Assembly: GCA_011049425.1 (NCBI GenBank)
Contig: DSBM01000053.1
Location: 3,689 to 67,688, forward strand
From: Candidatus Aminicenantes bacterium
GTDB taxonomy: Bacteria; Acidobacteriota; Aminicenantia; UBA2199
DNA: 64,000 nucleotides
Direction: 5' to 3'
Below the pieces are notes generated by a model. The model was not told the origin of the DNA. It searched no databases and was given only the letters and a program-made list of their open reading frames with translations. The position numbers and the translations under genes are program-made. Position 1 is the stretch's first letter; each line of letters starts with the position of its first letter. Positions 21,200 through 57,057 of this stretch are shown piece after piece.

Positions 21200-21987
21200 A
21201 ACGAGCCTGTATCTTGATCGTCATTCTGCCGCTGCTTGCGGCCTGCGCCAAACGCGGGCCGACATTGCCGGGTCAACTCAAACCCGGATCGGCCGAGTAC
21301 ATCCTCAACGAGGGGGTCTTTTACCTGAACCAGGGGCAAATTGACATGGCGCGGGAAAAGATCCAGGAGGCCTTAAAAAAGAAGCCCAACTCCAAAGCCG
21401 CCCACTATTCCATGGGTGTGGTCTATACCTACCTGCGGGACTTTCCCGCCGCCATAAAACACTTCAGAATCGTAATCAGCATGGACCCGGAATACTGGGA
21501 CGCATATAACTCGCTGGGCCTTATCTACATTGAGACCGGTGAATTGGACCTCGCCCGGCAGAACCTGCTCAAAGCCGCCACCGCGGACAAGTACCGCAAT
21601 CCGGAAAACGCTTACGTCAATCTGGCAATGCTGGAAATCAAACGTGAAGCCTATGACAACGCCTTGCGATATGTGGACAAAGGCATCACGCAAAACCGCA
21701 ATTTCGCCCCGTTACACAACCTGAGGGGCATTATCCTGGAAAAGCAGGGAAACCTGGATGAAGCGCTATACCATTACAAAAAAGCCCTGAACTGCCTGAC
21801 TGAAGAAGATGCGAACATCCTGCTCAACGTGGCCCGGGTCCACCATCTATTGGGACAGAAAAACAAAGCCCTGGACCTTCTGGATCAGGCGTTGGGACTG
21901 GCCAAGGACGAATTTACCACGCAGCGCATCCGCACGTTGATGCGCGAAGTGGAAGGCAAAAAAGAAGACACGGCCAACGACAACTAA
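21196..21987 (+). CDS. TPR-repeat lipoprotein
   Basis: Lipobox LLAACA, then several TPR-like A/Y/L-patterned repeats. Confidence 0.7.
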   Translation: MKRACILIVILPLLAACAKRGPTLPGQLKPGSAEYILNEGVFYLNQGQIDMAREKIQEALKKKPNSKAAHYSMGVVYTYLRDFPAAIKHFRIVISMDPEYWDAYNSLGLIYIETGELDLARQNLLKAATADKYRNPENAYVNLAMLEIKREAYDNALRYVDKGITQNRNFAPLHNLRGIILEKQGNLDEALYHYKKALNCLTEEDANILLNVARVHHLLGQKNKALDLLDQALGLAKDEFTTQRIRTLMREVEGKKEDTANDN

Positions 21988-24230
21988 CTTTTGCGCAGTG
22001 GCCGGATTTCCAGGGTTCCACCCTGCCCCGCGGATCGGTTGGGAATCAGGTGAAGGCGATAGTAGCAGCGGCTTTGGTAGCGGCGATAAAGGGGACTTCG
22101 CAGACTCCAACCGTCATTGTTCCCGGGGGCGACGTCCGCGTCAAACAGTTTAAGTTGGAACGGCGGCGGCCCGTCTCCATCCCAGACAACCTTCATTGTC
22201 CCCACCGGCACTGATGTCGTCAAAGTAAAAGAATAGACGCTACCGGGTTCCAGGTCGAACTTGCGCTGTTCAACCCGGCGCGGGTGTTGCGACGCGCCCA
22301 TCAAACGATGCAGCATCATGCCCTCTCCGTTTACCAGCGTGGGGTTGAAATCCGGTACCCGGGGAAGGATCACACCCAGCAGCAACACCATTGCAGACGC
22401 CATGGCGACAGCGAATGTGGCGTGGCGTTTTCGCAGGCGCAACGGGAGCAAAGCCAATACGCCAAGCCCCACCAGGAGAACCACCCAGATTGGATTGGGC
22501 CACCAACTCCAATTGCCGGGCATTTTGGCGAAGGACGGCAGCCATCCATCCAGATGAATTCCCAGGGGACTCAGGATCTGGAACATCAGCCCTGATCGAA
22601 TGGGAACATTGTGGGTAGTGGGCTGGTAGAGGGTCCAGGGATGGATTACCTGGAAGACGGTGACGCCGGCCGCATAAAAAGGCAGCCAGTGCCATGCCCG
22701 GCGCATCCACTGGTTGGGTCCTTCACGTAGGTATATCCACACAAAAAGCATGAGCGCCCAGATCACCGGAATCAAAGGCCGCGCCTGGGGACATTGCCCT
22801 CCCCGATGGCTCAGGAAAGCGTAATTAAAGACAAACACCGCCGCCGGTAAGGCCAACAAAAGATGAACCCGGTAACGCTTCCAATTGCGCAATGCCAGCC
22901 ACAATCCGGGAAACGCCAGGAAAAAGACCGGTGCATACGGCAGCAGCCCGTCCCGCTGGTCCAGGAAATAGTCCAGCAAGGTATCAATGCGCATCTGGAG
23001 GGGAATGCCGCGAAATACCACGTCACTGAAATGCATTTTCTGGGTATAGTTCAAATACACCGACATGGGCGAGAAATTGTGATAGGCGTAAAAGAGATAA
23101 CCCAGGAACAGGGCTTGAAACAAGAGCGGGAACACCCATAGTCGCCACAAAGCGCCGAAATTCCGCTGCCTGAGAAAAAACACAGTGAAGCCGGCCCCGA
23201 ATGCCCAGACAAAAATTGCGTACTTGACGCCCCAGAAAAACAATATCCCCAGCAAAAGCCCGGAGACCAGGATCGCCCGGGGGCGGTCGCGGTTATACAA
23301 AAGAAGATAGAGGGCCAACAAGAGAAAAAACAACACCTGGACTTCAGGGTAAGCGTGGATGGCGTGGAAAAACAACGGCGGGGTAAACAGGGCCACCAGG
23401 CACAATTGCAGGGCGAAGGTTCGCCGGAGTGACAGGCGCAGGCCGAACAGGTAAACCATCACCACCACGCCCGCACCGAACAGCCCCAACCAGGCCCGCA
23501 TGAAAAAGGCCCACCAAACCGGCGGCAGCGGCAACAGTACTATGGGGACCATGGCCACGGCCACGCCCGGCAGATGAATGGAATAGATAAAAGCGCCCTC
23601 AGGCGGCGGCAGATCATCGCGGAAAAGACGCGCCTGGAAACGGGCATCTTTCCAGCCGAAATATCCGTGAATGCCCATGGTCACTTTGGGAAGAAAGCGC
23701 CGATATTGATGTTGGGCGTATTGATTGGCTACGTTCAGATCACCGTCCCGGACCAACGACTGAGCGATCACCAGGTAATGCGGCTCATCACCCATCAAGG
23801 GGATTCCTTTCAGCGTGATGACCGCCGCCCCCGCCGCCAGCAGCAGCCAGGCCATAACAAACAGGGCGACCAGGCGCCGCCGCATGGAAAGGCGGTCGAA
23901 AAGGATGCGGATGCGCCGCACAGCCTGATGTCGGCCCAGCACATTAAGCGCCAGGACAAGGGCCACGACCCACGTCAAAATACTGATGCGCAGGGAAAAT
24001 TCCACCGCGTCCCAATACGTCAGCCGCGCCGGCCAGGCCAACAGCCCCAAGCACAGCCAACGATAAGCCGCAACCATTTTGCGCCTGGGGTGCCACAATA
24101 CCGTAGCGGCCAGTGCCAGGATCAGCGCCAGGAGCGCCGGCAAAGAAACGACAGTCACCTCGAGGGCCAGGCCGGTCAGGCCCGCCGCGGTGATGAGCCA
24201 CTGCAGGATAATGCGCTGCCGGGAATGCAT
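21984..24230 (-). CDS. GT-C fold membrane glycosyltransferase (ArnT/PMT-like) with C-terminal extracytoplasmic domain
   Basis: More than 10 TM helices. A DE-containing first-loop motif GDEPHYL. A ~150-aa soluble C-terminal region. Start chosen at MHSRQRI; the ORF track allows 24350. Confidence 0.55.
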   Translation of the reverse strand: MHSRQRIILQWLITAAGLTGLALEVTVVSLPALLALILALAATVLWHPRRKMVAAYRWLCLGLLAWPARLTYWDAVEFSLRISILTWVVALVLALNVLGRHQAVRRIRILFDRLSMRRRLVALFVMAWLLLAAGAAVITLKGIPLMGDEPHYLVIAQSLVRDGDLNVANQYAQHQYRRFLPKVTMGIHGYFGWKDARFQARLFRDDLPPPEGAFIYSIHLPGVAVAMVPIVLLPLPPVWWAFFMRAWLGLFGAGVVVMVYLFGLRLSLRRTFALQLCLVALFTPPLFFHAIHAYPEVQVLFFLLLALYLLLYNRDRPRAILVSGLLLGILFFWGVKYAIFVWAFGAGFTVFFLRQRNFGALWRLWVFPLLFQALFLGYLFYAYHNFSPMSVYLNYTQKMHFSDVVFRGIPLQMRIDTLLDYFLDQRDGLLPYAPVFFLAFPGLWLALRNWKRYRVHLLLALPAAVFVFNYAFLSHRGGQCPQARPLIPVIWALMLFVWIYLREGPNQWMRRAWHWLPFYAAGVTVFQVIHPWTLYQPTTHNVPIRSGLMFQILSPLGIHLDGWLPSFAKMPGNWSWWPNPIWVVLLVGLGVLALLPLRLRKRHATFAVAMASAMVLLLGVILPRVPDFNPTLVNGEGMMLHRLMGASQHPRRVEQRKFDLEPGSVYSFTLTTSVPVGTMKVVWDGDGPPPFQLKLFDADVAPGNNDGWSLRSPLYRRYQSRCYYRLHLIPNRSAGQGGTLEIRPLRKS

Positions 24231-24368
24231 GGGAAAGCCATTATCGCATAGCTCCCTTGGGGGCGCAATGAAAAAACCAGGGCATTCCGCGACGTCTAAC
24301 CGTCCGCGTTGGGAACGCTCTCCAGCGAACGGGAGCCCGCTTCCCGGCAAGCGGCCACGAAAAAGCGG

Positions 24369-33511: not shown

Positions 33512-34174
33512 TTATCTGGATGGAGCCAACAGATTCATAAGAATGGAAAAGGAACGATCCACCACGGCGGCTTCCAGGATAATGGTGAACTCACTGTAGG
33601 TTGAGACCACTTCAACCACGTTGATTCCCGACCATGCCAGGGGCTTGAGCAGGCCGTAGTGGATCCCCGGAGTAAAGATGACGGATTCGTCCAGGCGCAC
33701 GGAAACGGCGGCCAGGTTTTCAAGAGATTGGATCAATGTTTCCCTTACAAAAAAACGTACCGCCTTGTCCATAACGTCTTCACCGAGTACCAGCGTTATC
33801 TCGTTTACTCCCTGCGTAAGAGTAATAAACGCGTCGCCGTCCTCCTCAACTGATTCCAGCAAACGTTTCAGGCAATAATAAACTGATGGAGAGTGTCGAT
33901 ACGTCAATTCGCCCAGGCCGGACCGGACCGCAATTTTCCCCACGCCACGCAACGCTTTTTCAAGGTATGAACGCTTCCCGGATACCGACTCCTTCATGCG
34001 ATTCAAGGCCATCATCACGGCAGAGTCCGAAAGGTCGCGCATCAACTGTTTTTCCAGACCCGGCCTCAGTTCACGGGCCAGGGCCGAGAGATTGAGAATA
34101 TCCCTGGACATGGCTTCTTCGATAAAAGGGCTCTTGATCAACCACTCTGTTAACGCGTCGCTGATTGTTCGCAT
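33512..34174 (-). CDS. ACT-domain protein (aspartokinase regulatory-domain-like), divergent from the lys operon
   Basis: The C-terminal half resembles ACT repeats (FITLTQGVNEITLVL..., GINVVEVVSTYSEFTIIL). N-terminal ~90 aa unassigned. Confidence 0.4.
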   Translation of the reverse strand: MRTISDALTEWLIKSPFIEEAMSRDILNLSALARELRPGLEKQLMRDLSDSAVMMALNRMKESVSGKRSYLEKALRGVGKIAVRSGLGELTYRHSPSVYYCLKRLLESVEEDGDAFITLTQGVNEITLVLGEDVMDKAVRFFVRETLIQSLENLAAVSVRLDESVIFTPGIHYGLLKPLAWSGINVVEVVSTYSEFTIILEAAVVDRSFSILMNLLAPSR

Positions 34175-34283
34175 GTTAAATTTATAACATTGTGTTGTAT
34201 TTTTGTCAATATTAACTAATTTTTTGACTCACTCCCTCGCAGCAGCGTAGACTTCGGGCGTATTGAAATCAAAGGAGGCTAAC

Positions 34284-34457
34284 ATGAACAATCCGGTTGA
34301 ATGCCCTGTCTGCGGGGGGGGGCTGGATCTGCCTGAAGATGCCGTTCAGGGAGAACTGATCACCTGCCCGGAGTGCAACAGTGAGTTGGAGTTGGTAACA
34401 GTATCTCCTCTCAAGTTAGAGGAAGCTCCCGGCGAAGCAGAGGACTGGGGCGAGTGA
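34284..34457 (+). CDS. lysW: Amino-group carrier protein LysW
   Basis: [57 protein letters not shown]: zinc ribbon plus the acidic tail ending EDWGE, the LysW hallmark. RBS AGGAGG. Confidence 0.85.
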   Translation: MNNPVECPVCGGGLDLPEDAVQGELITCPECNSELELVTVSPLKLEEAPGEAEDWGE

Positions 34458-35668
34458 ATCCGAAAACCGTCCGTGTCCTGGACACCACGTTGCGTGAAGG
34501 GGAACAGACTCCCGGAATCTGCTTCCCTCCACACGCCAAAGCGGCGATTGCCGACATTCTGGAAACCATGGGCATCGATATCATTGAAGCCGGCCATCCG
34601 CTCGTCAGTTCAAGGACCTGGGCGGGGGTGCTGGCCGTGCGCCGCCGGATCCGCCGGGCCCTGGTTGCCGCCCACGCGCGCACAAAGCCCGGAGACCTGG
34701 TTGCAGCCCTGGACTGCGGGGTGGATCTTGTGGGAATCTTTTTCTGCGTTTCCGACCAGCGCTTGGCCCACCACGACATCACCCTGAACGCCGCCATTGA
34801 TCGCATCTGCTCTATCATCCGTCAGAGCAAGGAACAGGCACCTGAAGTCCTGGTTCGATACACCCCAGAGGACACGGTGCGCTCCGCCTGGAAGAACGTC
34901 CGACAGGCGGCGTGTGCCGCGGTTGATGCCGGAGCGGACATTATCAGTGTAGCGGACACCACCGGCGCCATGATTCCCGGGGGGGAACACTCCCTGAAGC
35001 CCTATGTGGCCCGCATGCAAGACGAATTTTCCCGCCGTGGATTGAATGCGGAAATCGCCGTCCATTGTCATAATGACCGTGGTCTGGCATTGGCGAACGC
35101 CCTTGACGGCATCCGCGGGGGGGCGACAATCGTGGACGCATCGGTATTGGGACTGGGGGAACGTGCCGGCATCGTTGATCTGGCCACCTTGCTGTCTGCT
35201 CTGTGCAACGATATGGGACTTGACCACCATTGGGATCTTACCCGGCTTCCGCATCTCTACAACACAGTCAGTCGCTTTTCCGGTATCCAGCCCGGCGTAA
35301 ACGCTCCAATCATCGGCCGCCACGCGTTTACCCACTGCGCCGGGGTTCACACCCAGGCCGCGCTCAACAATCCGGTACATTACGAAAGCCTGCACCCGGA
35401 AATGTTCGGGCGCTCCCGCAAAGTCGCGCTGGACCACATGTCAGGCATGTCTTCCCTGCGCTACTCCCTGGAGCAAATCGGATGCGACGAATTGGACCCG
35501 GAATTGACGACACGGCTGTTGGATGAGGTTAAACATATCGGTCACTCAGGTAGATGCATTGATCTGGTTGAACTGCGCTGGCTGGTGGATTCAATTAGAT
35601 CCGAATTTTCCTCTGGAGAAAATCATGATTCATATCACCCTTGTTCATTCGCTGATCCGGCGGGATGA
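34454..35668 (+). CDS. Homocitrate synthase (HMGL-like DRE-TIM fold)
   Basis: [11 protein letters not shown], then the catalytic core HCHND (HCHNDRGLA). Assigned to homocitrate rather than isopropylmalate synthase from the lysW/lysX context. Confidence 0.7.
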
Positions 35669-36470
35669 AAAACTCATTATGCAGGCTTTTGATCGCCACC
35701 CGCGCGTTCGCTGGACCGCCCTGGATGACCGTAGACATTGCCTGTCACCCAACCTCTCTTTGCCACACACGGATCTGTATTTTTGCCGCAGCCTTTCCCA
35801 GGGCAATACCCTGGCCTGGCTGGAGTACCTGGGGAATCAAGACCAGCGCTGTGTGAACTCTTTCGAGGTGGTACGGACCTGTGGAGACAAATTCTCCACT
35901 TCACTTGCCCTGCAGCGTGCGGGTGTACCCCAACCTTTGTTCTGCCTGGCATTGACGGCTGAGCAGGCCTTGTGTGCAATGGAAGAAATGGGATTCCCCG
36001 TGGTCGTCAAGCCCCTGGTCGGTTCCTGGGGACGCCTCATTGCGCTGATCAAAGACAGGGACGCGGCCGAAGCCGTACTCGAGCATAAAACCCGCTTGGG
36101 CGGTGTCGCGCATCAGCACATCTACATCCAGGAACATATATCGAAACCCGGCCGGGACATCCGTGCGTTTGTGGTCAATGATGAATGCATCGCCGCCATT
36201 TACCGCGAGTCTTCGCACTGGATCACCAACACCGCCCGGGGAGGAAAGGCTTTTAATTGCCCGATCACGGATGAAATCCACGAAATCGCGCTGAAAGCAT
36301 CCTTGGCCGTTGGTGGAGGCATTCTTGCCGTTGATTTGCTGGAAAGTGATCACGGCCTGCTGGTCAACGAAATCAATCATAACATGGAGTTCAAAAACTC
36401 CATTGACGTTACCGGTGTAAACATCCCGGAGCGAACCTTGGAAGGGCTTTTGAGCCTTGTGGAGAATTGA
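35625..36470 (+). CDS. lysX: Alpha-aminoadipate--LysW ligase (RimK-type ATP-grasp)
   Basis: ATP-grasp core ([14 protein letters not shown], ...NEIN). RBS GGAGAA-ATG at 35625. Confidence 0.8.
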
Positions 36471-37505
36471 ATGTCGAAAATCACCGTTACTGTTGCCGGC
36501 GCTTCCGGATTCACCGGTGGAGAATTGCTGCGTTTACTCTTATTCCATCCACGCGTAGAGGTTATCGCCGCCACTTCAGAACGCAATCGCGGCAAACCTG
36601 TTGCGTTGATTCACCCCAACCTGTATAGACACACCCGCCTGCGTTTCTCTTCGATGGAAGAGTTGCCGAGCAGTGACTTTCTCTTTCTGGCCCTTCCCCA
36701 TGGAGAAAGCAGCCGGCGTATCCACCTTTTGAGTGACAAGGCGTCAAAAATCATCGACTTGAGCGCGGATTTCCGCATTGCGGATCCAACCGTTTATCGT
36801 CAATGCTACGGCAAAGAGCACCCCGCTCCAGAATGGCTCAGTCAATTTATTTACGGCATCGTGGAAGTAAACCGCGAGCGTATCCGTACCGCAACCCGCG
36901 TCAGCGGGGCCGGGTGCAATGCCACTGCCGCCATTCTGGCATTATGGCCCCTGGCCCACGCCGGACTGCTCGACGACAGCTGGATCATCTGTGATATCAA
37001 GACCGGCACCAGCCAGGCGGGAGCCGCCCATTCCGCGGCCGGCCATCATCCCGTCCGCAGCGGGTCAGTGCGCAGTTACAAGCCTACCGGACATCGGCAC
37101 GGCACCGAGATTCGAAATTGCTTGAACCATGAACAGATCAGAATCAGCACCACCGGCCTCGACATTGTTCGCGGCATTCTGGCTACCTGTCACCTTTCTC
37201 TTCCCGCGGGTCTGGATGACCGCAAACTGCGGGGGGTTTTCAGAGCCGCCTATGCGGAAGAGCCGTTTATCCGTATCGTCAAAAAGTCATCTGGAGTTTT
37301 TCGCTATCCGGACCCTCGCCTGCTGGCGGGAAGCAACATCTGTGATATCGGTTTTGAAATCAATCGCGATGAGAACAGTCTGGTCGTTCTTTCCGCCCTG
37401 GACAATCTGATGAAGGGAGCGGCCGGGCAAGCAATCCACTGCATGAACCTGATGGCCGGGTTTCCCGAGACCTGCGGCCTTCAATTTCAAGGGCTATATC
37501 CCTGA
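36471..37505 (+). CDS. lysY: [LysW]-aminoadipate-6-phosphate reductase (ArgC family)
   Basis: GASGFTGGELLRLL NAD site; active Cys block SGAGCNAT. Confidence 0.85.
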   Translation: MSKITVTVAGASGFTGGELLRLLLFHPRVEVIAATSERNRGKPVALIHPNLYRHTRLRFSSMEELPSSDFLFLALPHGESSRRIHLLSDKASKIIDLSADFRIADPTVYRQCYGKEHPAPEWLSQFIYGIVEVNRERIRTATRVSGAGCNATAAILALWPLAHAGLLDDSWIICDIKTGTSQAGAAHSAAGHHPVRSGSVRSYKPTGHRHGTEIRNCLNHEQIRISTTGLDIVRGILATCHLSLPAGLDDRKLRGVFRAAYAEEPFIRIVKKSSGVFRYPDPRLLAGSNICDIGFEINRDENSLVVLSALDNLMKGAAGQAIHCMNLMAGFPETCGLQFQGLYP

Positions 37506-37515
37506 GGAGGAAGAG

Positions 37516-38157
37516 ATGTGTCGCATGTTGTTGATTCAGGACGACACCCCGTTTAACCCGGAACCGGACCTGATTGCCTTTCAGGATCTTTGCCGCGCCA
37601 GCCACGTTTACCAGGGGCACGGCTGGGGCATCGCCTACATGGATAACCGGGGCGAATGGCGCCATTATCGCAGTATCATTCCGATCTGGAAAGCAGACAT
37701 GGGCCGGATCCCCCCCACCCGCTGGCTTCTGGCTCATGCCCGCAGCGCTTTCAACAACGAAGGAATCCGTGTGGAAAACAACATGCCGTTTTTTCAGAAC
37801 GAGCGCAACTTCATTTTCAACGGTGAAATCCGCGGTGTACGCTTTCGGGCCCCGGGACGGATCGGCGCGGAAAAACTGTTCAATGTGATCAACCATTTCT
37901 GCGGCGACGATCTGCACACTAACCTTGAGAGAGCGGTCCATGCCGTCACGAGCCGCAGCCGCCATGTCCGGGCCATGAACATGATGCTGACGGAAAACGA
38001 CCGCACCATCGTGTTTTCCTACTTCACCCAGGAAGCAGATTATTTCACCCTTTACAAGCGCAAAACCGGCAATCGCACCACAATTTGTTCAGGCCGTTTC
38101 GGCCTCATCGAGGATTGGAGCTCCCTGGACAACCCCTGCCTGGAGATGGTCTCGTGA
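37516..38157 (+). CDS. Stand-alone class-II (Ntn, YafJ/EgtC-type) glutamine amidotransferase domain protein embedded in the lys cluster
   Basis: N-terminal MCRML (Cys2 nucleophile). LLAHARSAFNNEG...NNMPFF aligns with GlmS-type HTRWATHG...NAHPH. FNGEIRG aligns with the HNGxIxN oxyanion-hole block. Confidence 0.75.
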   Translation: MCRMLLIQDDTPFNPEPDLIAFQDLCRASHVYQGHGWGIAYMDNRGEWRHYRSIIPIWKADMGRIPPTRWLLAHARSAFNNEGIRVENNMPFFQNERNFIFNGEIRGVRFRAPGRIGAEKLFNVINHFCGDDLHTNLERAVHAVTSRSRHVRAMNMMLTENDRTIVFSYFTQEADYFTLYKRKTGNRTTICSGRFGLIEDWSSLDNPCLEMVS

Positions 38158-38948
38158 ACATCATAAAAATCGGCGGTGGTTCATCCGTAAATGTCGGCGG
38201 CATTCTCGATGACCTAAAGAAACTGGAAAGACCGGCCGTCATCGTTCATGGCGCCAATGCCTGGCGCGACGAGCTGGCCGGACACCTGAACCGGCCGATT
38301 CGCCGGTTGGTCTCTGAAAGCGGCCGTTCCAGTGTCTATTCCGACGACTCACTCCTGGACCTGCAGCTCATGGCCTACGCGGGCCTGCGCAATAAGCGTA
38401 TCGTAGAGATGTGCCAGCAGCGGGGATTTAATGCCGTGGGACTCACCGGCCTGGACGGCGGCCTGGTACGGGCTCGGCGCAACCCGGGGATCCGAATCGT
38501 GGAGAATAACCGGAAACGGCTTGTTCGCGATCTATCGGGCAAACCTGAAGCGCTGAACTTTCCCCTGCTGGACTACCTGTTGAAGTCAAATTATCTTCCA
38601 GTAATCACCGTACCCTTTCTCGACGAGAGAGGAAACGCGGTCAACAGCGAAAACGACGACCTGGTCAGCCTCCTTCACCGGGAATTGCAGGCGCAGCGCA
38701 TCTTTTTTTTCATTGAAGCCCCTGGACTGCTGCGGGATCCCCTGAACAACTCATCCATAATCCACCGCCTGACACCACCCGAGCTTGAAACGGAAATCAC
38801 GCGCTCCGATGGCAGAATGGGGCGTAAATTGCATGCGTTGAAAGCGATTCTGGCCATACCTCCTGTTACGGTTTTTATCTGTGACGGTCGGTTGGAGCAC
38901 CCCGTTCAGCATGCCCTAAACGGAAGCGGAACATGCATCAGCGCGTAA
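38154..38948 (+). CDS. lysZ: [LysW]-aminoadipate kinase (acetylglutamate kinase family; GTG start)
   Basis: VNIIKIGGGS...VIVHGAN: amino-acid kinase fold. Overlaps the upstream stop. Confidence 0.8.
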   Translation: MNIIKIGGGSSVNVGGILDDLKKLERPAVIVHGANAWRDELAGHLNRPIRRLVSESGRSSVYSDDSLLDLQLMAYAGLRNKRIVEMCQQRGFNAVGLTGLDGGLVRARRNPGIRIVENNRKRLVRDLSGKPEALNFPLLDYLLKSNYLPVITVPFLDERGNAVNSENDDLVSLLHRELQAQRIFFFIEAPGLLRDPLNNSSIIHRLTPPELETEITRSDGRMGRKLHALKAILAIPPVTVFICDGRLEHPVQHALNGSGTCISA

Positions 38949-38971
38949 TGTCGCGGTCGGAGCCGCGGCAA

Positions 38972-40117
38972 ATGAACTTTTCCGCCAATCGCGGCATACG
39001 CCTGATCAAGGGCGAAAACGCCACTATTTATGATGACTGCGGTCGCACCTACATCGATCTGGCCTCCGCACACGGAGTCGCCGCGGTCGGGCATGCCCAC
39101 CCGGCCGTTGCCCGGGCCGTGGCTTTTCAAAGCCAACATCTGCTCAGTTGCCCGGGCAGTTTTTCCAATGATGCCCGCGACAGATTGATCTCAGCCCTTT
39201 CCCGGGTAACGCCTCCCGCCCTTAACCGCTTCTTTTTCTGCAACTCCGGCACGGAAGCGGTTGAAGCCGCCCTGAAACTGGCCGCTATCAGTAACGGCAG
39301 ATCACGATTTGTCGCGTTTAAAAGGAGCTTTCACGGACGCACCATCGGCGCCCTGGGCGTAACCTGGCCTCCCGGGTACCGCGAACCATTTCATTCCCTA
39401 TTGCCGCAAGTGACGTTCCTGCCTTTCAACCAGGTGGAAGGCTTGATCAAAGCGATTGATCATACCGTGGCGGCCGTAATCGTGGAAGGAGTTCAGGGCG
39501 AAGGGGGTGTGTACCCGGCCCGGGCGGATTTTCTTTGCGAAATCCAGTCAGCCTGCAACGAGAGCGATGCATGCCTGATTCTGGATGAAATCCAGACTGG
39601 AGGCGGTCGGACCGGAAAATTCTGGGCGCACAGCCACTTCGGGGTTACGCCGGACATCATCTGTTTCGCCAAGGCCCTGGGGGGAGGCTTCCCTTTCGGT
39701 GGCATCGCCTGCGGACCGCGGATAATGGAAAAACCCGGAATTCATGGCTCTACGTTCGGCGGCAACCCCGTGGCCTGCGCCGCAGCCGCCGCAGCCCTGT
39801 CTATTATTGAGTCCCAGGACCTGTGCGTTATGGCCGCTGAGAAAGGCGAGATCATCATCGAGCAATTGCAGCGGGAGCCCTTGCCCGGGGTTCGAGATAT
39901 CCGCGGCCTCGGATGCATGGTGGGAATCGAACTGGAATACGCCGTTACGCCATTGCTCAAACGGCTGCAGGCACGGGGCGTCATCGCCCTGGCGGCCGGG
40001 CCTCACGTCATGCGTCTGCTACCGCCGCTGACAATCCCGGAAGAACAATTGCTCCGTGCCCTGGATACATTGATCACACTATTGAAAAACCCCCATCCCA
40101 AAAAACCATGTTCATGA
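38972..40117 (+). CDS. lysJ: [LysW]-aminoadipate semialdehyde / acetylornithine aminotransferase (class III PLP)
   Basis: GTEAVEAALKLA, LILDEIQTGGGRTG, PLP-Lys block FAKALGGG. Start may be as early as 38933. Confidence 0.8.
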   Translation: MNFSANRGIRLIKGENATIYDDCGRTYIDLASAHGVAAVGHAHPAVARAVAFQSQHLLSCPGSFSNDARDRLISALSRVTPPALNRFFFCNSGTEAVEAALKLAAISNGRSRFVAFKRSFHGRTIGALGVTWPPGYREPFHSLLPQVTFLPFNQVEGLIKAIDHTVAAVIVEGVQGEGGVYPARADFLCEIQSACNESDACLILDEIQTGGGRTGKFWAHSHFGVTPDIICFAKALGGGFPFGGIACGPRIMEKPGIHGSTFGGNPVACAAAAAALSIIESQDLCVMAAEKGEIIIEQLQREPLPGVRDIRGLGCMVGIELEYAVTPLLKRLQARGVIALAAGPHVMRLLPPLTIPEEQLLRALDTLITLLKNPHPKKPCS

Positions 40118-42498
40118 AAAATGTTTCGTATTGGCAGGCTCTCCCATATGTCTATCGTGCGTTTCTCTGGTGTGTTCACAATACCCTGGAACATTGTGAA
40201 CTAACCATCGACTGGCCGAAACGAGCGGAAAAGCTGGTGGGCATGGAGGTTCCGTTTTGTCCGACCCGACTCCTGCTCCAGGACGCCTCGGGTTTGAATT
40301 TAGTCCAGGACCTGATCTCCAGTACAGTGAACGGGTCGCGACTCCCGCCCATGGACCTGGTGGTGGATCACGGCATCATTACCGAGGACTTCGGCAATAA
40401 ACAGTCTGCCGCGCGCAATCGCCGCACGGAAATGAATGCCAATCACCACCGTTACCGTTTTTTTAAAGATGCCTCCAGGATAATCCCTTCATTGACCATT
40501 CATCCCCCGGGATCGGGGGTGATTCATCAACTCAACCTGGAACGCCTGGCACCGCAAAAAGCGTCATTCAGCCTCGATACCCCCCAGGATTGCGTTCTGG
40601 GCACCGACTCTCATACCCCGATCATCAATGCCCTCGGCGTTCCGGGTTGGGGAGTCGGCGCCCTGGAAGCGCTCTACGCCGCCTGTTTCGGCCCCGTATC
40701 TCTGGCCATCCCTCCGGTCACCCAGGTTGTATTGCGTGGGAAACTTCGCGCAAATTGCACACCCACCGACCTGGCCCTCCACCTGGCCCACCGACTCAGG
40801 AGGATCGGCATCAATGGGACCTGGGCGGAATTCAGCGGTCCCGCCCTGGATTATCTGCCTATCGCGGATCGGGCCGTTCTTGCCGGCATGGCCCCTGAAT
40901 ACGGCTGCCAGATGGCGTTTTTTCCCGTGGATCATTGCGGGATCGCTTTCATGGAACGAATCGTGGGATCCGTGCGGACGCAACGCTGGCGGAAGGTCGC
41001 CCAAATAAGGGGGCTATGGCGCGAAAACCGTCCAACGCGACCGGTCGCGTGTGAAATCATTGTTGACCTGGATCAACTGAAGCCCTGCGCTTCAGGGCCT
41101 GAATACCCCTGGCAGCGGGTAACCGCAATATCTACAAAACCCGTGCGCCTGGCGGCCATCACTTCATGCACAAACGGCGCCCACCCGAGAATGTTGATCC
41201 GCGCGGCACTGCTCGCCCGCAACGCCTTGCGAGCCGGGATAAGTCCGGCTCCACGAATCAAAACGGTTCTCGCTTTATCCTCAACCCGGGTTATGGCTTT
41301 TTTGCGCGAAAGCGGCCTGGCTTCGTACCTTGAACAAACCGGCTTCTTTGATTGCGGCATCGGCTGCGGACCGTGCTTAGGCCATTGCGGTTCACTCCCG
41401 CCAGAGACCACGCAAGGCAACGATCAAGGCTGCGCCGTCATTTCCGGCAACCGTAATTTCCCCGGACGCATCCACCCGGAACTCGACGCGGTTTTTTTGG
41501 CATCGCCGGAACAAGTGGTAGCCGCGACCTTGATGGGTCGGTGGGGTGGAGTCATCGACCCATGCTCGTCCCATCCATTCGCCCGCCTGTGGGCCGAACA
41601 AGCGGAGGTTGAACACTACCAGGCCCAGTGGAACAATGCCCACATTCCCCTGCAAACTGAAAAGTTGTTGCGCCGGGAAGCCCAAGAGCATTGGCATCAT
41701 TTCAGGGCCGAACCTTCTGGTGAAATACAGGGGCTCCGGAAAATCACCGCATCTCCCCTTGCCGATATTGGAACACCTTCCTGGATAAAAAGCGGCAGCC
41801 TGAACAACGCCGGGGTATTGGTTAAACTCGGTGACGGGATAACCACCGACCATATTTCACCCGTCGGCCCGATCCCCCGGGAAAGCGAGTCGGGGCGATT
41901 CATTCTCATGAAATCCGGCCTGTCAACAACTCCGCAAAGTTATGCTGCCTGGCGCGCCAATGCCGAAGTCATGATCAGGGGAGGATTCACGTCACCACGC
42001 CTGCACAACCTGCTGCTGACGGAGCAACCTTCAGGGGGATATACGGCAATCCGGGGAAACAATCACACCTTGCCGATCTGGAAGGCGGCGCGAATCTATC
42101 GCTTCCGGCGCGTACCGCTGATTGTTCTGGCGGGCAAAGAATACGGAGCCGGTTCGGCGCGCGACTGGGCAGCTAGGGTGACCCGCCTGCTGGGCGTTGA
42201 AGCAGTAATTGCGCTTTCTTTTGAGGAAATCCATCGCCGCAACCTGATCACCATGGGCGTTATTCCCTTGCTTTATAATCAAGACAACCGCCACGACATC
42301 TACGCCATCGGGGCCGAGCACCGCTTGACCATCCGCCAACTCAAAGATCTGGCACCGGAAAGCCGGCAGGATTGCATTGTTCGCGATCCCATGGGGCGGA
42401 CTGCAACGATTCCACTTACTTCCGCCATCAGGACGGAATGGGAAGCCAACCTGCTTATGCGAGGTGGTATTCCAAGCCGCATGGAAAAACACGTGTAG
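40114..42498 (+). CDS. Aconitase-family hydro-lyase, single-chain (~795 aa), translationally coupled to lysJ; candidate homoaconitase
   Basis: LGTDSHTP, ITSCTNGAHP, CGPCLGHCG, NRNFPGR and the swivel-domain GSARDWA: the full set of aconitase cluster-ligand and substrate motifs in AcnA domain order. Confidence 0.75.
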   Translation: MKNVSYWQALPYVYRAFLWCVHNTLEHCELTIDWPKRAEKLVGMEVPFCPTRLLLQDASGLNLVQDLISSTVNGSRLPPMDLVVDHGIITEDFGNKQSAARNRRTEMNANHHRYRFFKDASRIIPSLTIHPPGSGVIHQLNLERLAPQKASFSLDTPQDCVLGTDSHTPIINALGVPGWGVGALEALYAACFGPVSLAIPPVTQVVLRGKLRANCTPTDLALHLAHRLRRIGINGTWAEFSGPALDYLPIADRAVLAGMAPEYGCQMAFFPVDHCGIAFMERIVGSVRTQRWRKVAQIRGLWRENRPTRPVACEIIVDLDQLKPCASGPEYPWQRVTAISTKPVRLAAITSCTNGAHPRMLIRAALLARNALRAGISPAPRIKTVLALSSTRVMAFLRESGLASYLEQTGFFDCGIGCGPCLGHCGSLPPETTQGNDQGCAVISGNRNFPGRIHPELDAVFLASPEQVVAATLMGRWGGVIDPCSSHPFARLWAEQAEVEHYQAQWNNAHIPLQTEKLLRREAQEHWHHFRAEPSGEIQGLRKITASPLADIGTPSWIKSGSLNNAGVLVKLGDGITTDHISPVGPIPRESESGRFILMKSGLSTTPQSYAAWRANAEVMIRGGFTSPRLHNLLLTEQPSGGYTAIRGNNHTLPIWKAARIYRFRRVPLIVLAGKEYGAGSARDWAARVTRLLGVEAVIALSFEEIHRRNLITMGVIPLLYNQDNRHDIYAIGAEHRLTIRQLKDLAPESRQDCIVRDPMGRTATIPLTSAIRTEWEANLLMRGGIPSRMEKHV

Positions 42499-42816
42499 CA
42501 TCGGCCGCACCCCCCACTTCGCGGACCACACGCAGCAACGGCTCCCGGCAGCACCGCAAAGGCCCGGCTCCCGTCCGCGCCACCGCATCGTCATAATCTT
42601 TAACGGCGGGCATCGCAATCGTGTCTGTTTTCCACCCTTCAGGTTGTCCACGATCACTCCCTAATTTCCCGAAGTGATTGGATGGGCACACGGGCGAAGG
42701 AGCCTTCATTGGGGAAAGAAAAACATTTGCTTTAAAAACACTTGATTGGCGTGCGCATTCAGCGTATGCTGCGGTTGCGGCTGAACCCAACCCGCAAAAA
42801 TTTCGTGAGGCGAAAA

Positions 42817-43419
42817 ATGAAACTTCACTTTTTTCTCTGCATTCCCCTGTTGGTAGTGGCCATTCCGGACTTGGCGGGCGCGGATATTCCCCGAAAAATC
42901 AGTGACATCCCCACCTACGCGGATGCAAAGAGAGACACCGCGGCCGAGGCCGAATACAAGGCTCAGATGGAAGGAGAAGAAGACAGCGAAAGCGGTCGCA
43001 GCGAGATCATCCGCATCTATTCCGTTGCCTCCGCGCCGGAACCGGTGGCCCGCTTCTACATCAAACAGCTCAAAGCAAGCGCGGGCATGCCGGAAATCAC
43101 GGAAGAGCCCGCTCCCGGAACCGTGATTGCCCCATGGTATGAATTGGAATTCTATAGGCCGCAGGATTTTGAAAACCAGTACGAATACGACACCCTGATC
43201 TACGACGGCAAATGGGTGAAATCCTGCCTGGAAAACCGCGAACCCTGGTCGCCGGGTCAATGGCTGGGCCAGGCCAACCTCATGTGGGAAGTCTACACCG
43301 CGGACAGTGAGCGGAAGGAATACCTGGTCGGAATTGAAGATATGAGCGTGGATAACCAGAACCACACGTTTATCCCGCGAACCCGCATCTTTATCCAGGT
43401 GGTAAGGGAAGAAGAATAA
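42817..43419 (+). CDS. Secreted hypothetical protein
   Basis: Start MKLHFFLCIPLLVVAIP (signal peptide). Acidic mature protein with no recognised domain. Confidence 0.5.
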   Translation: MKLHFFLCIPLLVVAIPDLAGADIPRKISDIPTYADAKRDTAAEAEYKAQMEGEEDSESGRSEIIRIYSVASAPEPVARFYIKQLKASAGMPEITEEPAPGTVIAPWYELEFYRPQDFENQYEYDTLIYDGKWVKSCLENREPWSPGQWLGQANLMWEVYTADSERKEYLVGIEDMSVDNQNHTFIPRTRIFIQVVREEE

Positions 43420-45288: not shown

Positions 45289-46875
45289 TCATTTTTCCAT
45301 CGGAAAAGTAAGGTTGTTTTTCCACGTCGGCGGGGTGCGGGAATCGTTGATGCGGCGCACCAGCCACAATGCCGCCTGGATGGTCTGGCGCAGGCCGCCC
45401 AGGTCCCAGTTCGGGTTGTATTCATCCCGCACAGTGTGATAATCCCCAAGCCAGAAGCGGGTATAATGCCGCTCGCCATCCACCTCTTCTTCCCCGGCTG
45501 AGATCCACACCGCCGGGATTCCCCGGCGCGCGAAGGCGAACTGGTCGGAACGGTAAAACAGCCCCTGGTTGGCCAGGGAAAATTGGGAATACCCCAGGCC
45601 GGCGGCGGCGGCCGTTTCACGTATCAAATCCTCGAAAGTGGAAAAGCGCGCGCCGATCCCCATCAGGGTGGTGGACGGCTTCCATACCGGGGTGGATTCA
45701 AAATTGATGTTGGCCACGATTGTAGAACGGTCTGTGTTATCCACGAAGTATTTTGACCCCAACAAACCCGCCTCCTCGCTGTTGCAGGCCAGCAAGGTGA
45801 CAGAGTAGTGAAGCGTGGATTGAAATTTCTTGAGGATTTTTGCCGCCACCACCATGGCGGCAACCGCCGTGCCGTTGTCAATCGCCCCGTTATAGACGTT
45901 GTCCCCACCGGCATCCGTTTTCCCCAGGTGGTCGATGTGGGCGCTGAGAACGATCCGTTGGCTAACCTTTCCGGGGATCGTGGCCACCACGTTGCGGTTC
46001 ATGATCGTTTCACATTTGTTGTTGCCGCTGATCGTGACCGGCAGGCCCAGATCTGCAGGCCGGAAATCCCGGGAAAGGGAATCCATGTACAGTGCCTCCA
46101 GCTCAATCCCCTTTCTCGCCAGTAACGTGCGCAAACTCTCTTCCCGGATCCAGCCCCGGAACACGAGGTCATTCTCGATCTGGGAGGGGATAAAAAGCTC
46201 ACCGTTGGTCCAGGAGTTTTTCACCACGTTCCAATCGTAGCCCGCGGATTCAGCCGTATGGATCAACAGGATGCCCATGGCCCCGCGGCGCACGGCCTCC
46301 TCGATGTGGTAGGTCCAGCGGCCGAAATAGGTCAACGTTTTGCCCTCGAAAATTTCCGGATGGTACAGACCGGGGTCGTTGACACGACTGACCAGGATCT
46401 TGCCCGAGATATCCACATCCTTGAAATCGTCCCAGTTCCATTGCTCCGCCTGGATGCCGAACCCCGTAAATACCAGTGGCGCGGTCAGGTTAAACCGCTT
46501 TTTCTCTTGTGTGCAGGTGCCCACCAGGTCGCGGATGTATTCCAGTCTTGCCTCGCCCGCTGAAAGCTGAATGGCTGAAGTGGTGAACTTCTTCAATGTA
46601 AACGGCTGCATGTACCCCTGCGCTCCCGCGGGCTCCAGATCCATGAATTTGAACAGGCTGCGCAGGTAGATCTCCGCCAGGTCGCCCCCGCGAGTGCCCG
46701 GGGCGCGGCCTTCCAGCAGGTCGTGTCCCAGGAATTCCACCACGGCCTGCATCTCCGCCCGTGAAATGCCCTGTAACCGCTTTTCAAAAGCGTCGTCCGC
46801 GGCTACGCCCCACACCGTCGTTCCCGCCAGAGCCAGCAAAAATACCATGATTCCCAACCGTTTTATCATGACCAT
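45289..46875 (-). CDS. Secreted M28-family aminopeptidase with PA domain
   Basis: Signal peptide, then NVVATIPG...LSAHIDHLG, NGAIDNGTAVAAM, CNSEEAGLLGSKYF: M28 zinc-ligand blocks. Confidence 0.85.
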   Translation of the reverse strand: MVMIKRLGIMVFLLALAGTTVWGVAADDAFEKRLQGISRAEMQAVVEFLGHDLLEGRAPGTRGGDLAEIYLRSLFKFMDLEPAGAQGYMQPFTLKKFTTSAIQLSAGEARLEYIRDLVGTCTQEKKRFNLTAPLVFTGFGIQAEQWNWDDFKDVDISGKILVSRVNDPGLYHPEIFEGKTLTYFGRWTYHIEEAVRRGAMGILLIHTAESAGYDWNVVKNSWTNGELFIPSQIENDLVFRGWIREESLRTLLARKGIELEALYMDSLSRDFRPADLGLPVTISGNNKCETIMNRNVVATIPGKVSQRIVLSAHIDHLGKTDAGGDNVYNGAIDNGTAVAAMVVAAKILKKFQSTLHYSVTLLACNSEEAGLLGSKYFVDNTDRSTIVANINFESTPVWKPSTTLMGIGARFSTFEDLIRETAAAAGLGYSQFSLANQGLFYRSDQFAFARRGIPAVWISAGEEEVDGERHYTRFWLGDYHTVRDEYNPNWDLGGLRQTIQAALWLVRRINDSRTPPTWKNNLTFPMEK

Positions 46876-53999: not shown

Positions 54000-56900
54000 T
54001 TGCCTTTCGAGTCAACCGGATTTAATCCAAATTCGTAAAACAAACTGAAACTGGGGACGGTGCTTGTAAGTATGTAAATACGGATTTTTGGATAACAAAA
54101 GAGAAAGCCCGCCTGCGGCGAAATACCAGAACGGAACTTTGATTATCCTGTCAGTAAAAAGGGGCCAGGTCAACGACTGACCTTTCTTTGTCATTTTTTT
54201 GAATTGTATCATGAGTCGGCCGATCCTTATTGAATTCCCAGGCTCCTGAAAACCAGGTCCAACGGATATCTAAAAAAGAAATCTGAATGGTCAAAAATGC
54301 ACCCATTCCCGATTCACAGAAAAAGGCAGAAAATAATGAAAATGGAATTCTCGAGAAAAGTCAAACGTGGACTTGACCCATTTATCGGGTCTTTTATTCT
54401 TTTTCCGTAAGCGTTATATTTTTTTAATAGTGCTTGACCGGAGGATGCCATGCATAAGAGACCTTTGATCCTGATCGCATTTTTAATTATCGGTTCGTTC
54501 ATTTATTCACAGACGGGTCCCGATGAATTCTTTAACAGGAAGATCGGTGAGGACCGGGTCCTGATAGCCTACCCGGATATCGTGAAATATATGCAATATC
54601 TGGGAAAGAATTCTCTGCGGGTGGTCACCCGGAACGAGGGGCTCTCCACGCGGGGGAACCCGATGATACTTTCTTTCATTTCATCGGAGAAGAACATTGA
54701 AAACCTTGAAGAACTGATCAGAATGAACAGCCGAATGGCCAATCCCGACCGGATGAAAAGGCTGGAATCCCGGATGCTGATCGAAGACGGGAAGGCCTTC
54801 ATCCTGATCACCGGGACGATCCACTCCACTGAAATAGCCTCTTCCCAGATGATGCTGCTGCTTGCCCACCGCTTTGCAACGGGTTCCGGCGGGGAAATCG
54901 AGAACATTCTTGACAATACCGTTCTGATGCTGATGCCCTCCATCAATCCGGATGGGAACATTATGGTGACGGAATGGTATGAAAAGCATATCGGAACCGA
55001 ATATGAAGGCGGGCCGCTTCCTTTTCTCTACCATCATTATGCCGGACATGACACAAACAGGGATTTTTTCATGCTGAATCTCAAAGAGACAAAAGTGGTC
55101 AATGCCATTTTGCATAAGAGATATTTTCCCCAGGTCTTCCTGGATATGCACCAGATGGGAATAACAGGTCCGAGAATGTTCGTCCCGCCCTTCAAGGACC
55201 CGATGAACGATAACCTCGACCCGGTGCTTCTGAGAGAAACGGATCTGATCGGTTCATATATGGCATTCAAGCTCCAGGAAAAAGGAAAGAAGGGCGTGGC
55301 CTCGGGGTATGGTTTTGACGCATACTGGCCCGGCGGATCAAAAAATACAGCGTGGTATAAAAATGTTGTCGGTATCCTGACGGAACTGGCCAGCGTCGCG
55401 ATCGCCTCTCCCGTTTTTATAGACAAAAACGAATTGATGTCTTCGTCGAAGGGACTGCCGGAGTACAAAAAGCAGACGAATTTCCCCGACCCATGGGAGG
55501 GAGGATGGTGGCGGCTGAAGGATATCATCGATTATGAGTGTATTGCCGCGGAGGCTTTGTGCGAAGTTGTTTCCGCAAACAGGAAGAGTTTCCTTCAAAA
55601 TTATGTGAACTGCGGCATTGAAAGTATCCGGAAAGGCCGGGCGGGGGATCCGAAAGGTTATATTATCCCCGGCAGCCAGATCGATCAGACGGCAATGATG
55701 GCCTTTATCCGGAAAATGGCGGAAGGCGGCGTCAGGGTGTTCAGGATCGGCCGGGATAAGGTTTCCGGCGGACGGCTGATCAGCGACGGGTCCTATTACA
55801 TACCGCTCGCTCAGCCCTATGGCAATTTTGTCCGTTTGATGATGGAGAAACAGGTTTACCCCGAAATAAAATACATGAAAGAAGGACCTGTCATTGAACC
55901 TTACGATGCGGCCGGCTGGACCCTCCCGATACAGATGGGCGTTCAGTATCTGGAAGTGAACACAGAGCCTGCCGGACCGGGAGAGATGGAGGAAGTCAGC
56001 GGATTCACTACTTCGGCTGAGGCCCCGGAGGGACAGGGGGATCTGATGGTCATTCCGACCGGGGATACAGGAAGCGCGCTGGTGGTGAACCGGCTGTTGA
56101 GGAAGAAGGTTCCTGTATTCAGGAGCACTACCAACGGAACTCTTTGTAGGGGTGATTTTGCGATCAATGTAAAAAACATCGACAGGTCATTGATTGAGAA
56201 AGTACTGAAAGACACCGATGTGAAGGTCCGGATGGAGGAGGGAACGGATCCTGCCGGCCTGAAAGAGCTGAGAAAGCCGGAGATTGCGATATACCAGTCT
56301 TTCCTCCCCAGTATGGACGAAGGGTGGACCCGCTGGGTGCTGGATGAATTCGGGTTCGATTATTCGGTCATTCATAACGCTGACATGAAAAAAAGGAATT
56401 TACCGGGCAGGTTTGATGTCATTATCATCCCGGACATGGACCGGGAGGCTGTGGTGAACGGGAAGTATCGCGGGTATCGTGGGAAGTATTATGAGCGGAT
56501 GCCTTCGGAGTACAAGGGTGGGATCGGCAAAGAAGGGATCGAAAATCTGGTCCGTTTCGTGCGGGATGGAGGATCTGTTATTTTCCTGGATTCTTCATAT
56601 GAGATCGCAGCCACTGATTTCGAACTTCCCTTCGAGAATATACTTAAAGACAAACAAAATAGACGTTTCTATTGCCCCGGGTCGATATTGAAAGTAAAGA
56701 TCGATACAGAAGATCCGATCGGATGGGGAATGAATGAGGAAAATGTTCTGTTCTTTTCAAACGGCCCGGTCTTCCGGACAATGATGCCGGTGAATCATCA
56801 CATCCGCAGGCGTATTGTTTCCCGGTTTAAAGACAAAGGGCCCCACCTGGTCAGCGGCTTTTTGAAGGGGGGTGAGTTCCTCGACCGGGCTGTTTCATCA

Positions 56901-57057
56901 GCAGTGTTCGACTACTACAAAGGCAGCGTCATCCTGTTCGCCGGCAGAATCCAGCACCGGGGGCAAACGTTTGCCACCTTTAAAATGCTCTTCAATGCCC
57001 TTTATTATTCCGTGCTGAACTGATCTTACGGCCGGGTTACCTCAATACTGATAGGAA
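54000..57057. mobile_element. ~3 kb low-GC island (putative horizontally acquired segment) carrying only the M14 carboxypeptidase gene; no integrase or transposase seen
   Basis: Sharp fall in GC from ~60% to roughly 45-50% starting near 54000 and ending within 35 nt after the M14 stop. AT-rich codon usage. Borders a truncated ridA. Confidence 0.5.
54450..57023 (+). CDS. M14-family zinc carboxypeptidase (~857 aa, secreted) on a low-GC island
   Basis: HSTE (HxxE), HDTNRD, DMHQMG zinc and substrate motifs. Signal peptide LILIAFLIIGSFIYSQ. GC visibly lower than the flanks. Confidence 0.85.
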   Translation: MHKRPLILIAFLIIGSFIYSQTGPDEFFNRKIGEDRVLIAYPDIVKYMQYLGKNSLRVVTRNEGLSTRGNPMILSFISSEKNIENLEELIRMNSRMANPDRMKRLESRMLIEDGKAFILITGTIHSTEIASSQMMLLLAHRFATGSGGEIENILDNTVLMLMPSINPDGNIMVTEWYEKHIGTEYEGGPLPFLYHHYAGHDTNRDFFMLNLKETKVVNAILHKRYFPQVFLDMHQMGITGPRMFVPPFKDPMNDNLDPVLLRETDLIGSYMAFKLQEKGKKGVASGYGFDAYWPGGSKNTAWYKNVVGILTELASVAIASPVFIDKNELMSSSKGLPEYKKQTNFPDPWEGGWWRLKDIIDYECIAAEALCEVVSANRKSFLQNYVNCGIESIRKGRAGDPKGYIIPGSQIDQTAMMAFIRKMAEGGVRVFRIGRDKVSGGRLISDGSYYIPLAQPYGNFVRLMMEKQVYPEIKYMKEGPVIEPYDAAGWTLPIQMGVQYLEVNTEPAGPGEMEEVSGFTTSAEAPEGQGDLMVIPTGDTGSALVVNRLLRKKVPVFRSTTNGTLCRGDFAINVKNIDRSLIEKVLKDTDVKVRMEEGTDPAGLKELRKPEIAIYQSFLPSMDEGWTRWVLDEFGFDYSVIHNADMKKRNLPGRFDVIIIPDMDREAVVNGKYRGYRGKYYERMPSEYKGGIGKEGIENLVRFVRDGGSVIFLDSSYEIAATDFELPFENILKDKQNRRFYCPGSILKVKIDTEDPIGWGMNEENVLFFSNGPVFRTMMPVNHHIRRRIVSRFKDKGPHLVSGFLKGGEFLDRAVSSAVFDYYKGSVILFAGRIQHRGQTFATFKMLFNALYYSVLN

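Follow-up and report, generated by a model that had tools for sequence, protein, structure and literature searches.

A gene for a small protein of the class-II glutamine amidotransferase (GATase) fold lies within a LysW lysine-biosynthesis operon of a Candidatus Aminicenantes bacterium, in the 64-kb stretch of DNA that was analysed as a whole (hereafter the window). The LysW, or amino-group carrier protein (AmCP), route is a textbook case of carrier-protein-mediated amino-acid biosynthesis, and M20 LysK is, to our knowledge, the only known enzyme family for its release step. From sequence comparison and gene neighbourhoods we propose that the protein, here called GAT, is probably a LysW-γ-amide hydrolase that non-orthologously replaces LysK. 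It would cleave the γ-amide that the carrier bears on its C-terminal glutamyl residue, as in LysW-γ-Lys or LysW-Gln.

Single-sequence searches with GAT were nearly silent. Pfam GATase_4 (PF13230) gave the window protein E = 0.09 (12.1 bits against a gathering threshold of 23); a PDB sequence search returned 3mdn at E = 0.0045 and EgtC at E = 0.012; the NCBIfam EgtC equivalog TIGR03442 gave 39.8 bits and did not reach its cutoff of 218.65. NCBIfam release 20 holds no model for the family, and neither Pfam nor NCBIfam finds an M20 signal in the protein itself. Profile and fold methods were needed. Close homologues number more than 1,100, with lengths of 210-215 residues. The profile of 38 of them aligns over its full length with E. 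coli YafJ (hhalign probability 98.3%, E = 1.7e-13), and 21 of the 38 match GATase_4 at E < 1e-3. An AlphaFold 2 (AF2) model of GAT is of high quality (predicted local distance difference test score, pLDDT, 91.4; predicted template-modelling score, pTM, 0.90). Foldseek places EgtC best (template-modelling score, TM, 0.77-0.81; E = 2e-12), and its top 50 matches are solely EgtC, YafJ-like, GlmS, PurF or GFAT glutaminase domains, all at probability 1.00. Model and matches together give the four-layer α-β-β-α arrangement of N-terminal nucleophile (Ntn) hydrolases. On this modelled structure, GAT is best described as a true, if unusual, Ntn hydrolase of the class-II GATase fold and is not an EgtC orthologue. 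Relative to Pfam GATase_4 and YafJ-like proteins, its family is a remote, divergent branch.

The conserved residues point to both familiar and altered chemistry. In alignment A1, which comprises the 38 relatives, R76, N102-G103 and the run G114-R115-I116-G117-A118-E119-K120 are invariant, and M1, C2 and R3 nearly so (conserved in at least 90%). About 90 of 104 cluster representatives start with Met-Cys, the rest being truncated calls or calls with a wrong start. R76 and N102-G103 align to the HxR and HNG motifs of YafJ, EgtC and GlmS. C2 is thus the predicted nucleophile, R76 the likely equivalent of Arg73, which binds the α-carboxylate, and N102-G103 the putative oxyanion hole. An account of the same DNA made earlier from its letters and open reading frames (ORFs), the preliminary description, had claimed both a class-II GATase fold and a Cys1 nucleophile; the YafJ profile match, the AF2 model, the Foldseek result and the conserved MCR start bear out each claim. 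The public JGI call of the window gene (P0001) is 210 residues long and covers profile positions 4-211, which puts its start at Met4 and leaves out the presumed catalytic Cys2. Several cluster representatives are mis-started in the same way.

In class-II GATases, Arg73 grips the α-carboxylate of glutamine, and Asp123/127 grips the α-amino group; the numbering of Asp123 (GlmS) and Asp127 (PurF) agrees with the E. coli sequences. By hhalign, the GRIGAEK segment of GAT aligns with GETDSEK of YafJ and SETDTEV of GlmS, so the canonical Asp (GlmS D123, PurF D127, YafJ TDSE) is replaced by G117. Local-mode alignments of GAT with GlmS and PurF are statistically weak (E = 0.11) and consistent in register. 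A profile search of 1.84 billion representatives returned 140 clusters at E <= 1e-30 and 350 at E <= 1e-10; the canonical-Asp position is Gly in 102 of the 104 near-full-length representatives of the family. The exchange is consistent with a glutamyl residue held within a peptide chain. GAT is a single 213-residue domain, with no synthase (acceptor) domain of its own and no candidate partner in the operon. Isoelectric points, compared between the family and YafJ/GlmS, gave no useful signal.

Two known systems frame these features. EgtC, the γ-glutamyl-hercynylcysteine sulfoxide hydrolase of the ergothioneine pathway (PDB 4zfj, 4zfk and 4zfl), is like GAT a stand-alone class-II Cys1 Ntn hydrolase, of about 230 residues, and removes a γ-glutamyl group from a biosynthetic intermediate; its leaving amine is larger than NH3, as proposed for GAT. 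The two share 17-19% identity. Unlike EgtC, GAT is proposed to take as its acyl donor a residue at the C-terminus of a protein, with the α-amino group in a peptide bond, which fits the Gly in place of Asp. A non-exhaustive scan of the window ORFs found no egt genes; the neighbours of GAT there, and in 85 loci from relatives, are lysW, lysX, lysY, lysZ and lysJ. YafJ-type (GATase_4) proteins (E. coli YafJ; PDB 1te5 and 3mdn) have in common with GAT the single domain, the Met-Cys amino terminus, the Arg and the Asn-Gly pair, but between GETDSEK and GRIGAEK the Asp has been lost and the invariant Arg115 gained, and GAT, unlike the YafJ type, has a dedicated genomic context.

GAT might instead sit in the operon by chance and supply, for example, glutamate or ammonia, whether as a conventional glutaminase acting on free glutamine, as an amidotransferase subunit or as an EgtC/YafJ orthologue. 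Public names ("glutamine amidotransferase", and in one case EgtC) and the GATase_4 matches of 21 relatives are in keeping with this. Against it stand the score with the EgtC model, the family-wide loss of the Asp that holds the α-amino group, the lack of a synthase partner, a linkage to lysW-lysX-lysY that extends across more than ten phyla, and a C-terminal state of LysW that tracks the presence of GAT (see below). We judge this explanation very improbable.

Further comparative evidence concerns LysK. Seeded with E. coli ArgE, a phmmer --max search found no M20 peptidase in the window at E <= 10; the sensitivity of this seed is adequate, because it detects Thermus thermophilus LysK at E = 1.8e-8. 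The lone match to an M20 hidden Markov model (E = 3e-4; 45289-46875, minus strand) is a 528-residue M28 peptidase, not LysK, whose gene lies 3 kb from the operon. As a control, metagenome contigs were scanned for the LysW C-terminus only (A-P-x3-E-D-W-G-[E/Q]-stop), which yielded 120 loci picked regardless of GAT or LysK; 54 of them carry lysW, lysX and lysY along with lysZ or lysJ. Thirteen of these clusters contain GAT only, 20 contain an M20 gene only, 20 contain neither, and one contains both. Six M20 genes from the M20-only clusters were tested, and every one exceeds the cutoff of 363 bits of the NCBIfam "[LysW]-lysine hydrolase" model (NF003367), with scores of 372-521 bits. The M20 protein of the sole two-gene cluster (L180) fails this model and is assigned by NCBIfam to a different M20 subfamily, so true lysK occurs in 0 of 14 GAT clusters versus 20 of 40 non-GAT clusters (p = 7.6e-4, kinship ignored). 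With the GAT loci from GTDB genomes added, p falls to 2e-11, again with kinship ignored. The only M20 gene near a GTDB GAT locus (L036) likewise encodes a protein of a different subfamily, not LysK.

This pattern also bears on the idea of an editing or recycling amidase that, in the manner of type-II thioesterases, rids the carrier pool of LysW adducts that are mis-charged or stalled (such as LysW-γ-Glu or LysW-γ-AAA, AAA being α-aminoadipate). Such an enzyme would act on the same class of substrate by the same chemistry as a replacement for LysK, and it fits both the operon linkage and the Gly-for-Asp change. It predicts, however, co-occurrence with lysK rather than mutual exclusion or seizure of the lysK slot, and unless highly specific it would create a futile, ATP-consuming cycle with LysX. 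An editing role is in our view quite unlikely.

Several points weigh against replacement of LysK. The inspected loci cover +/-10 kb, and GAT-bearing organisms possibly encode a distant lysK. Twenty of the 54 control clusters have neither gene, and location of lysK elsewhere in the genome must therefore be common; Thermus is an example of lysK apart from the lysW cluster. Class-II GATase pockets, moreover, normally enclose a small free amino acid. Finally, the Caldithrix abyssi genome paper places LysWXZYJ and Hcs in an eight-gene locus (Cabys_3146-3153) and reports homologues of the other pathway enzymes scattered in the genome; the same paper explicitly raised possible non-orthologous displacement.

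The association of GAT with LysW is broad. With each GTDB species represented by a single genome, relatives turned up in at least 547 species. The loci of the best 80 of these were inspected together with five others, 85 in all. The family spans more than ten phyla. Taxa among the best 80 are Ignavibacteria/Melioribacteraceae, Calditrichota, Acidobacteriota (Thermoanaerobaculia), Gemmatimonadota, Gamma- and Deltaproteobacteria/Desulfobacterota, KSB1, Planctomycetota, Binatia, Dehalococcoidia and one DPANN archaeon. Almost all of the 85 loci have the order lysW-(hcs)-lysX-lysY-GAT-lysZ-lysJ. The hcs gene is absent from a subset, and in some proteobacterial loci just the lysW-lysX-lysY-GAT portion remains together.

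Genes for a second GAT subfamily, which is more divergent (MCRF...NQP[YF]...G[AS]QK, about 220 residues), directly follow lysJ and close the cluster. This is the slot that M20 lysK takes in lysW-X-Y-Z-J-K clusters. Members are at:

L170, 2466-3131, minus strand
L205, about 7200-7853, plus strand
L216, 3862-4494, plus strand

The loci without hcs (L004, L005, L008, L017, L020, L029, L037, L058 and L070) come mostly from Gammaproteobacteria metagenome-assembled genomes, and their lysZ and lysJ lie about 9 kb off or beyond the range covered. Clusters of this kind could be ornithine/arginine (ArgW-type) pathways rather than lysine pathways; NCBIfam models applied to LysX did not discriminate between lysine and ornithine specificity, since all pass the LysX model. 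In one Melioribacteraceae locus (L045; 13009-17247, plus strand), a second set of argC-, argB- and argD-like genes follows the LysW/GAT cluster at a distance of about 3 kb, which suggests that carrier-dependent and acetyl-dependent routes exist side by side. Public names of GAT relatives are generic ("glutamine amidotransferase") or wrong. The NCBI protein P0091 is named "Gamma-glutamyl-hercynylcysteine sulfoxide hydrolase" (EgtC). It is most likely the GAT of locus L035 (Ignavibacteria bacterium Bin_45, JABAQZ010000011.1; 10001-10621), which lies within lysW-lysX-lysY-GAT-lysZ-lysJ, and its EgtC annotation is probably wrong.

The carrier itself provides a further link. LysW ends in ...EDWGQ, rather than ...EDWGE, at 27 of the 64 GAT-selected loci and in 3 of the 14 GAT clusters of the unbiased sample. 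Combined, 30 of 78 GAT clusters (about 38%) encode a Gln-ended LysW, versus none of 40 informative non-GAT clusters (p = 0.015 for the unbiased sample alone, 7e-7 combined; kinship ignored). Examples are L001 (6765-6935), L005 (7908-8072), L010, L040, L109, L167 and L168. Four further contigs with Gln-ending LysW are too short to judge for GAT, and placing them by LysX similarity was uninformative. The window LysW ends in Glu, and that of its nearest relative with genomic context, L001, in Gln. On a neighbour-joining tree of the GAT proteins, the Glu/Gln state of LysW changes at least 14 times among the 78 taxa.

We know of no ATP-grasp ligase that can activate a γ-carboxamide; a Gln-terminated LysW would thus need deamidation before use. 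The ligase LysX/ArgX joins its substrate to the γ-carboxylate of the C-terminal Glu of LysW/ArgW (PMC10433800). A Gln-ended carrier should be tolerable only where an amidase acts on the γ-amide of its last residue. A hydrolase of such γ-amides would deamidate the Gln as well, with NH3 as the leaving group, and GAT is thereby tied to the LysW C-terminus.

Maturation could, on the other hand, be the whole of the GAT function: a deamidase that converts the C-terminal Gln of new LysW to Glu, with lysine released by an M20 LysK encoded elsewhere. The restriction of Gln-ended LysW to GAT clusters fits this proposal, glutaminase chemistry is native to the GATase fold, and lysK is often unlinked to lysW, as the 20 of 54 clusters with neither gene indicate. 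Yet 48 of the 78 GAT clusters, that of the window included, already encode a Glu-ended LysW and keep GAT with invariant catalytic residues; because the state has switched at least 14 times, Gln looks like a tolerated state and not the enzyme's raison d'etre. A deamidase also leaves unexplained the absence of lysK from GAT clusters and the presence of a GAT subfamily in the lysK slot. We regard a role in maturation only as unlikely.

LysW-like zinc-ribbon ORFs ending in EDWGE also occur as orphans: L091-L094 (IMG/VR), L141 and L192, the last two on metagenome contigs of 12-13 kb. None has lysX, lysY, lysZ or lysJ within the available sequence, and four are on contigs classed as viral.

Replacement of LysK by GAT suggests the following mechanism. 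Removal of Met1 would expose the Cys thiol, which would attack the γ-carbonyl of LysW-γ-lysine, with N102 and G103 forming the oxyanion hole. R76 would bind the free α-carboxylate of the terminal residue of LysW, and G117, in place of the Asp that grips the α-amino group, would make space for the Gly-Glu peptide bond of the LysW chain. Free L-lysine would be released, and hydrolysis of the LysW-γ-glutamyl thioester would regenerate LysW-Glu for LysX. The LysK step would then be performed by unrelated chemistry, a case of non-orthologous displacement. With a Gln-ended LysW, the same reaction would expel NH3 and produce active LysW-Glu; such deamidation would explain why Gln-terminated LysW is frequent and occurs only where the GAT gene is present. 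Speculatively, the acidic EEDWGE tail might be bound by three basic residues, R3 (nearly invariant), R115 and K120 (both invariant). More speculative still, the amino group of an incoming α-aminoadipate might attack the thioester (transamidation) and so recharge LysW without ATP.

A larger scheme, to which we give even chances, is that Gln-terminated LysW is an inactive pro-LysW, and that one Ntn hydrolase both activates the carrier and releases the product in each cycle, in a LysK-independent AmCP pathway spread over more than ten phyla.

LysK, which catalyses the final hydrolysis of the pathway (PMC12998189), is an M20 metallopeptidase of the ArgE/DapE family (PDB 5xoy). The reaction proposed for GAT is the same: Lys or Orn is taken off the carrier, as in LysW-γ-Lys, and LysW is regenerated. 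LysK, however, is a Zn/Co metallohydrolase, whereas GAT would proceed through a covalent Cys thioester on an unrelated fold. LysK-type clusters never encode a Gln-terminated LysW; GAT clusters sometimes do. GAT is at most a functional analogue of LysK, not a member of its family.

In the window, Pfam and NCBIfam assignments define a co-directional, translationally coupled block, lysW-hcs-lysX-lysY-GAT-lysZ-lysJ-acn:

34284-34457, plus strand: lysW, amino-group carrier protein, 57 residues, C-terminus ...AEDWGE
34454-35668, plus strand: hcs, homocitrate-synthase-like, with HMGL-like and HCS_D2 domains (TIGR02146, 300 bits, below cutoff)
35625-36470, plus strand: lysX, ATP-grasp LysW:α-aminoadipate ligase (TIGR02144, 297.5 bits, above the cutoff of 275.6)
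36471-37505, plus strand: lysY, argC-type reductase with semialdehyde-dehydrogenase domains (TIGR01850, 358 bits)
37516-38157, plus strand: GAT, stand-alone class-II GATase-fold Cys1 Ntn hydrolase (predicted), 213 residues, starting Met-Cys-Arg
38154-38948, plus strand: lysZ, [LysW]-aminoadipate kinase with an AA_kinase domain (NF010659, 204 bits; cutoff 223)
38933-40117, plus strand: lysJ, class-III aminotransferase (Aminotran_3, E = 6e-110; LysJ models, 363-378 bits)
40114-42498, plus strand: acn, AcnA-like aconitase family, 794 residues, with Aconitase and Aconitase_C domains (AcnA model, 584 bits, below the cutoff of 686)

The lysW product matches Pfam Zn_ribbon_LysW (E = 3e-14) and TIGR01206 (56.5 bits, above the cutoff of 53.2). 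Its ATG, at 34284, follows the ribosome-binding site AAAGGAGG, and a sigma-70-like TTGACT-18-TAGACT element at 34224-34253, upstream of the gene, is promoter-like by consensus match only. The hcs GTG start shares GTGA with the lysW stop; hcs and lysX overlap by 44 nt, the lysX start having been picked by the model match and an upstream GGAG; lysX and lysY abut. The GAT ORF has its own strong ribosome-binding site, GAGGAGG, and its stop overlaps the lysZ GTG start in GTGA, an overlap of 4 nt found identically in the relative locus L001. The lysZ-lysJ overlap is 16 nt, and the acn start overlaps the lysJ stop in ATGA, so that acn is translationally coupled. The AcnA-like aconitase may be the (homo)citrate dehydratase or homoaconitase of the pathway, replacing LysT/LysU. 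No homoisocitrate dehydrogenase gene lies within the operon.

The preliminary description had placed GAT in a tightly packed operon devoid of lysK. The overlapping or abutting junctions agree with this, and the ArgE search extends the absence of lysK to the whole window. It had set linkage to lysW in relatives beforehand as the test on which its idea could fall, and GAT is found within lysW clusters at almost all of the 85 loci. The survey of GAT against lysK that it proposed, carried out at the level of clusters, gave the 0 of 14 versus 20 of 40 described above. Its interpretation of GAT as a replacement for LysK thus gains comparative support from four sides: the exclusion of lysK, the subfamily in the lysK slot, the Gln-ended LysW, and the Gly for Asp.

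Elsewhere in the window, the ORFs that flank the operon, 33512-34174 (minus strand, 220 residues) and 42742-43419 (plus strand, 225 residues), have no Pfam or NCBIfam match, nor has the ORF at 21984-24350 (minus strand, 788 residues). An 857-residue protein encoded at 54450-57023 (plus strand) has a weak M14 zinc-carboxypeptidase domain and is unlike LysK; its gene falls within the window's single patch of low GC (54-56 kb, GC 0.48). Rfam and tRNA scans of the 64 kb were empty.

Among 8 million open full texts, subscription-only papers excluded, we found none that links LysW/AmCP to an amidotransferase or Ntn hydrolase and none that mentions EDWGQ. GAT apparently represents a widespread, undescribed variant of the LysW pathway with a non-orthologous release enzyme, and a Gln-terminated pro-carrier is probably part of it. 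If this is true, a second, mechanistically unrelated release enzyme would fill a hole that now makes the biosynthesis of lysine, and possibly ornithine, seem incomplete in automated reconstructions for Ignavibacteria, Calditrichota, Acidobacteriota, Gemmatimonadota, many Gamma- and Deltaproteobacteria, and others. Annotations as "glutamine amidotransferase" and "EgtC" would be corrected, and the Gln-terminated LysW would constitute a new kind of carrier pro-form.

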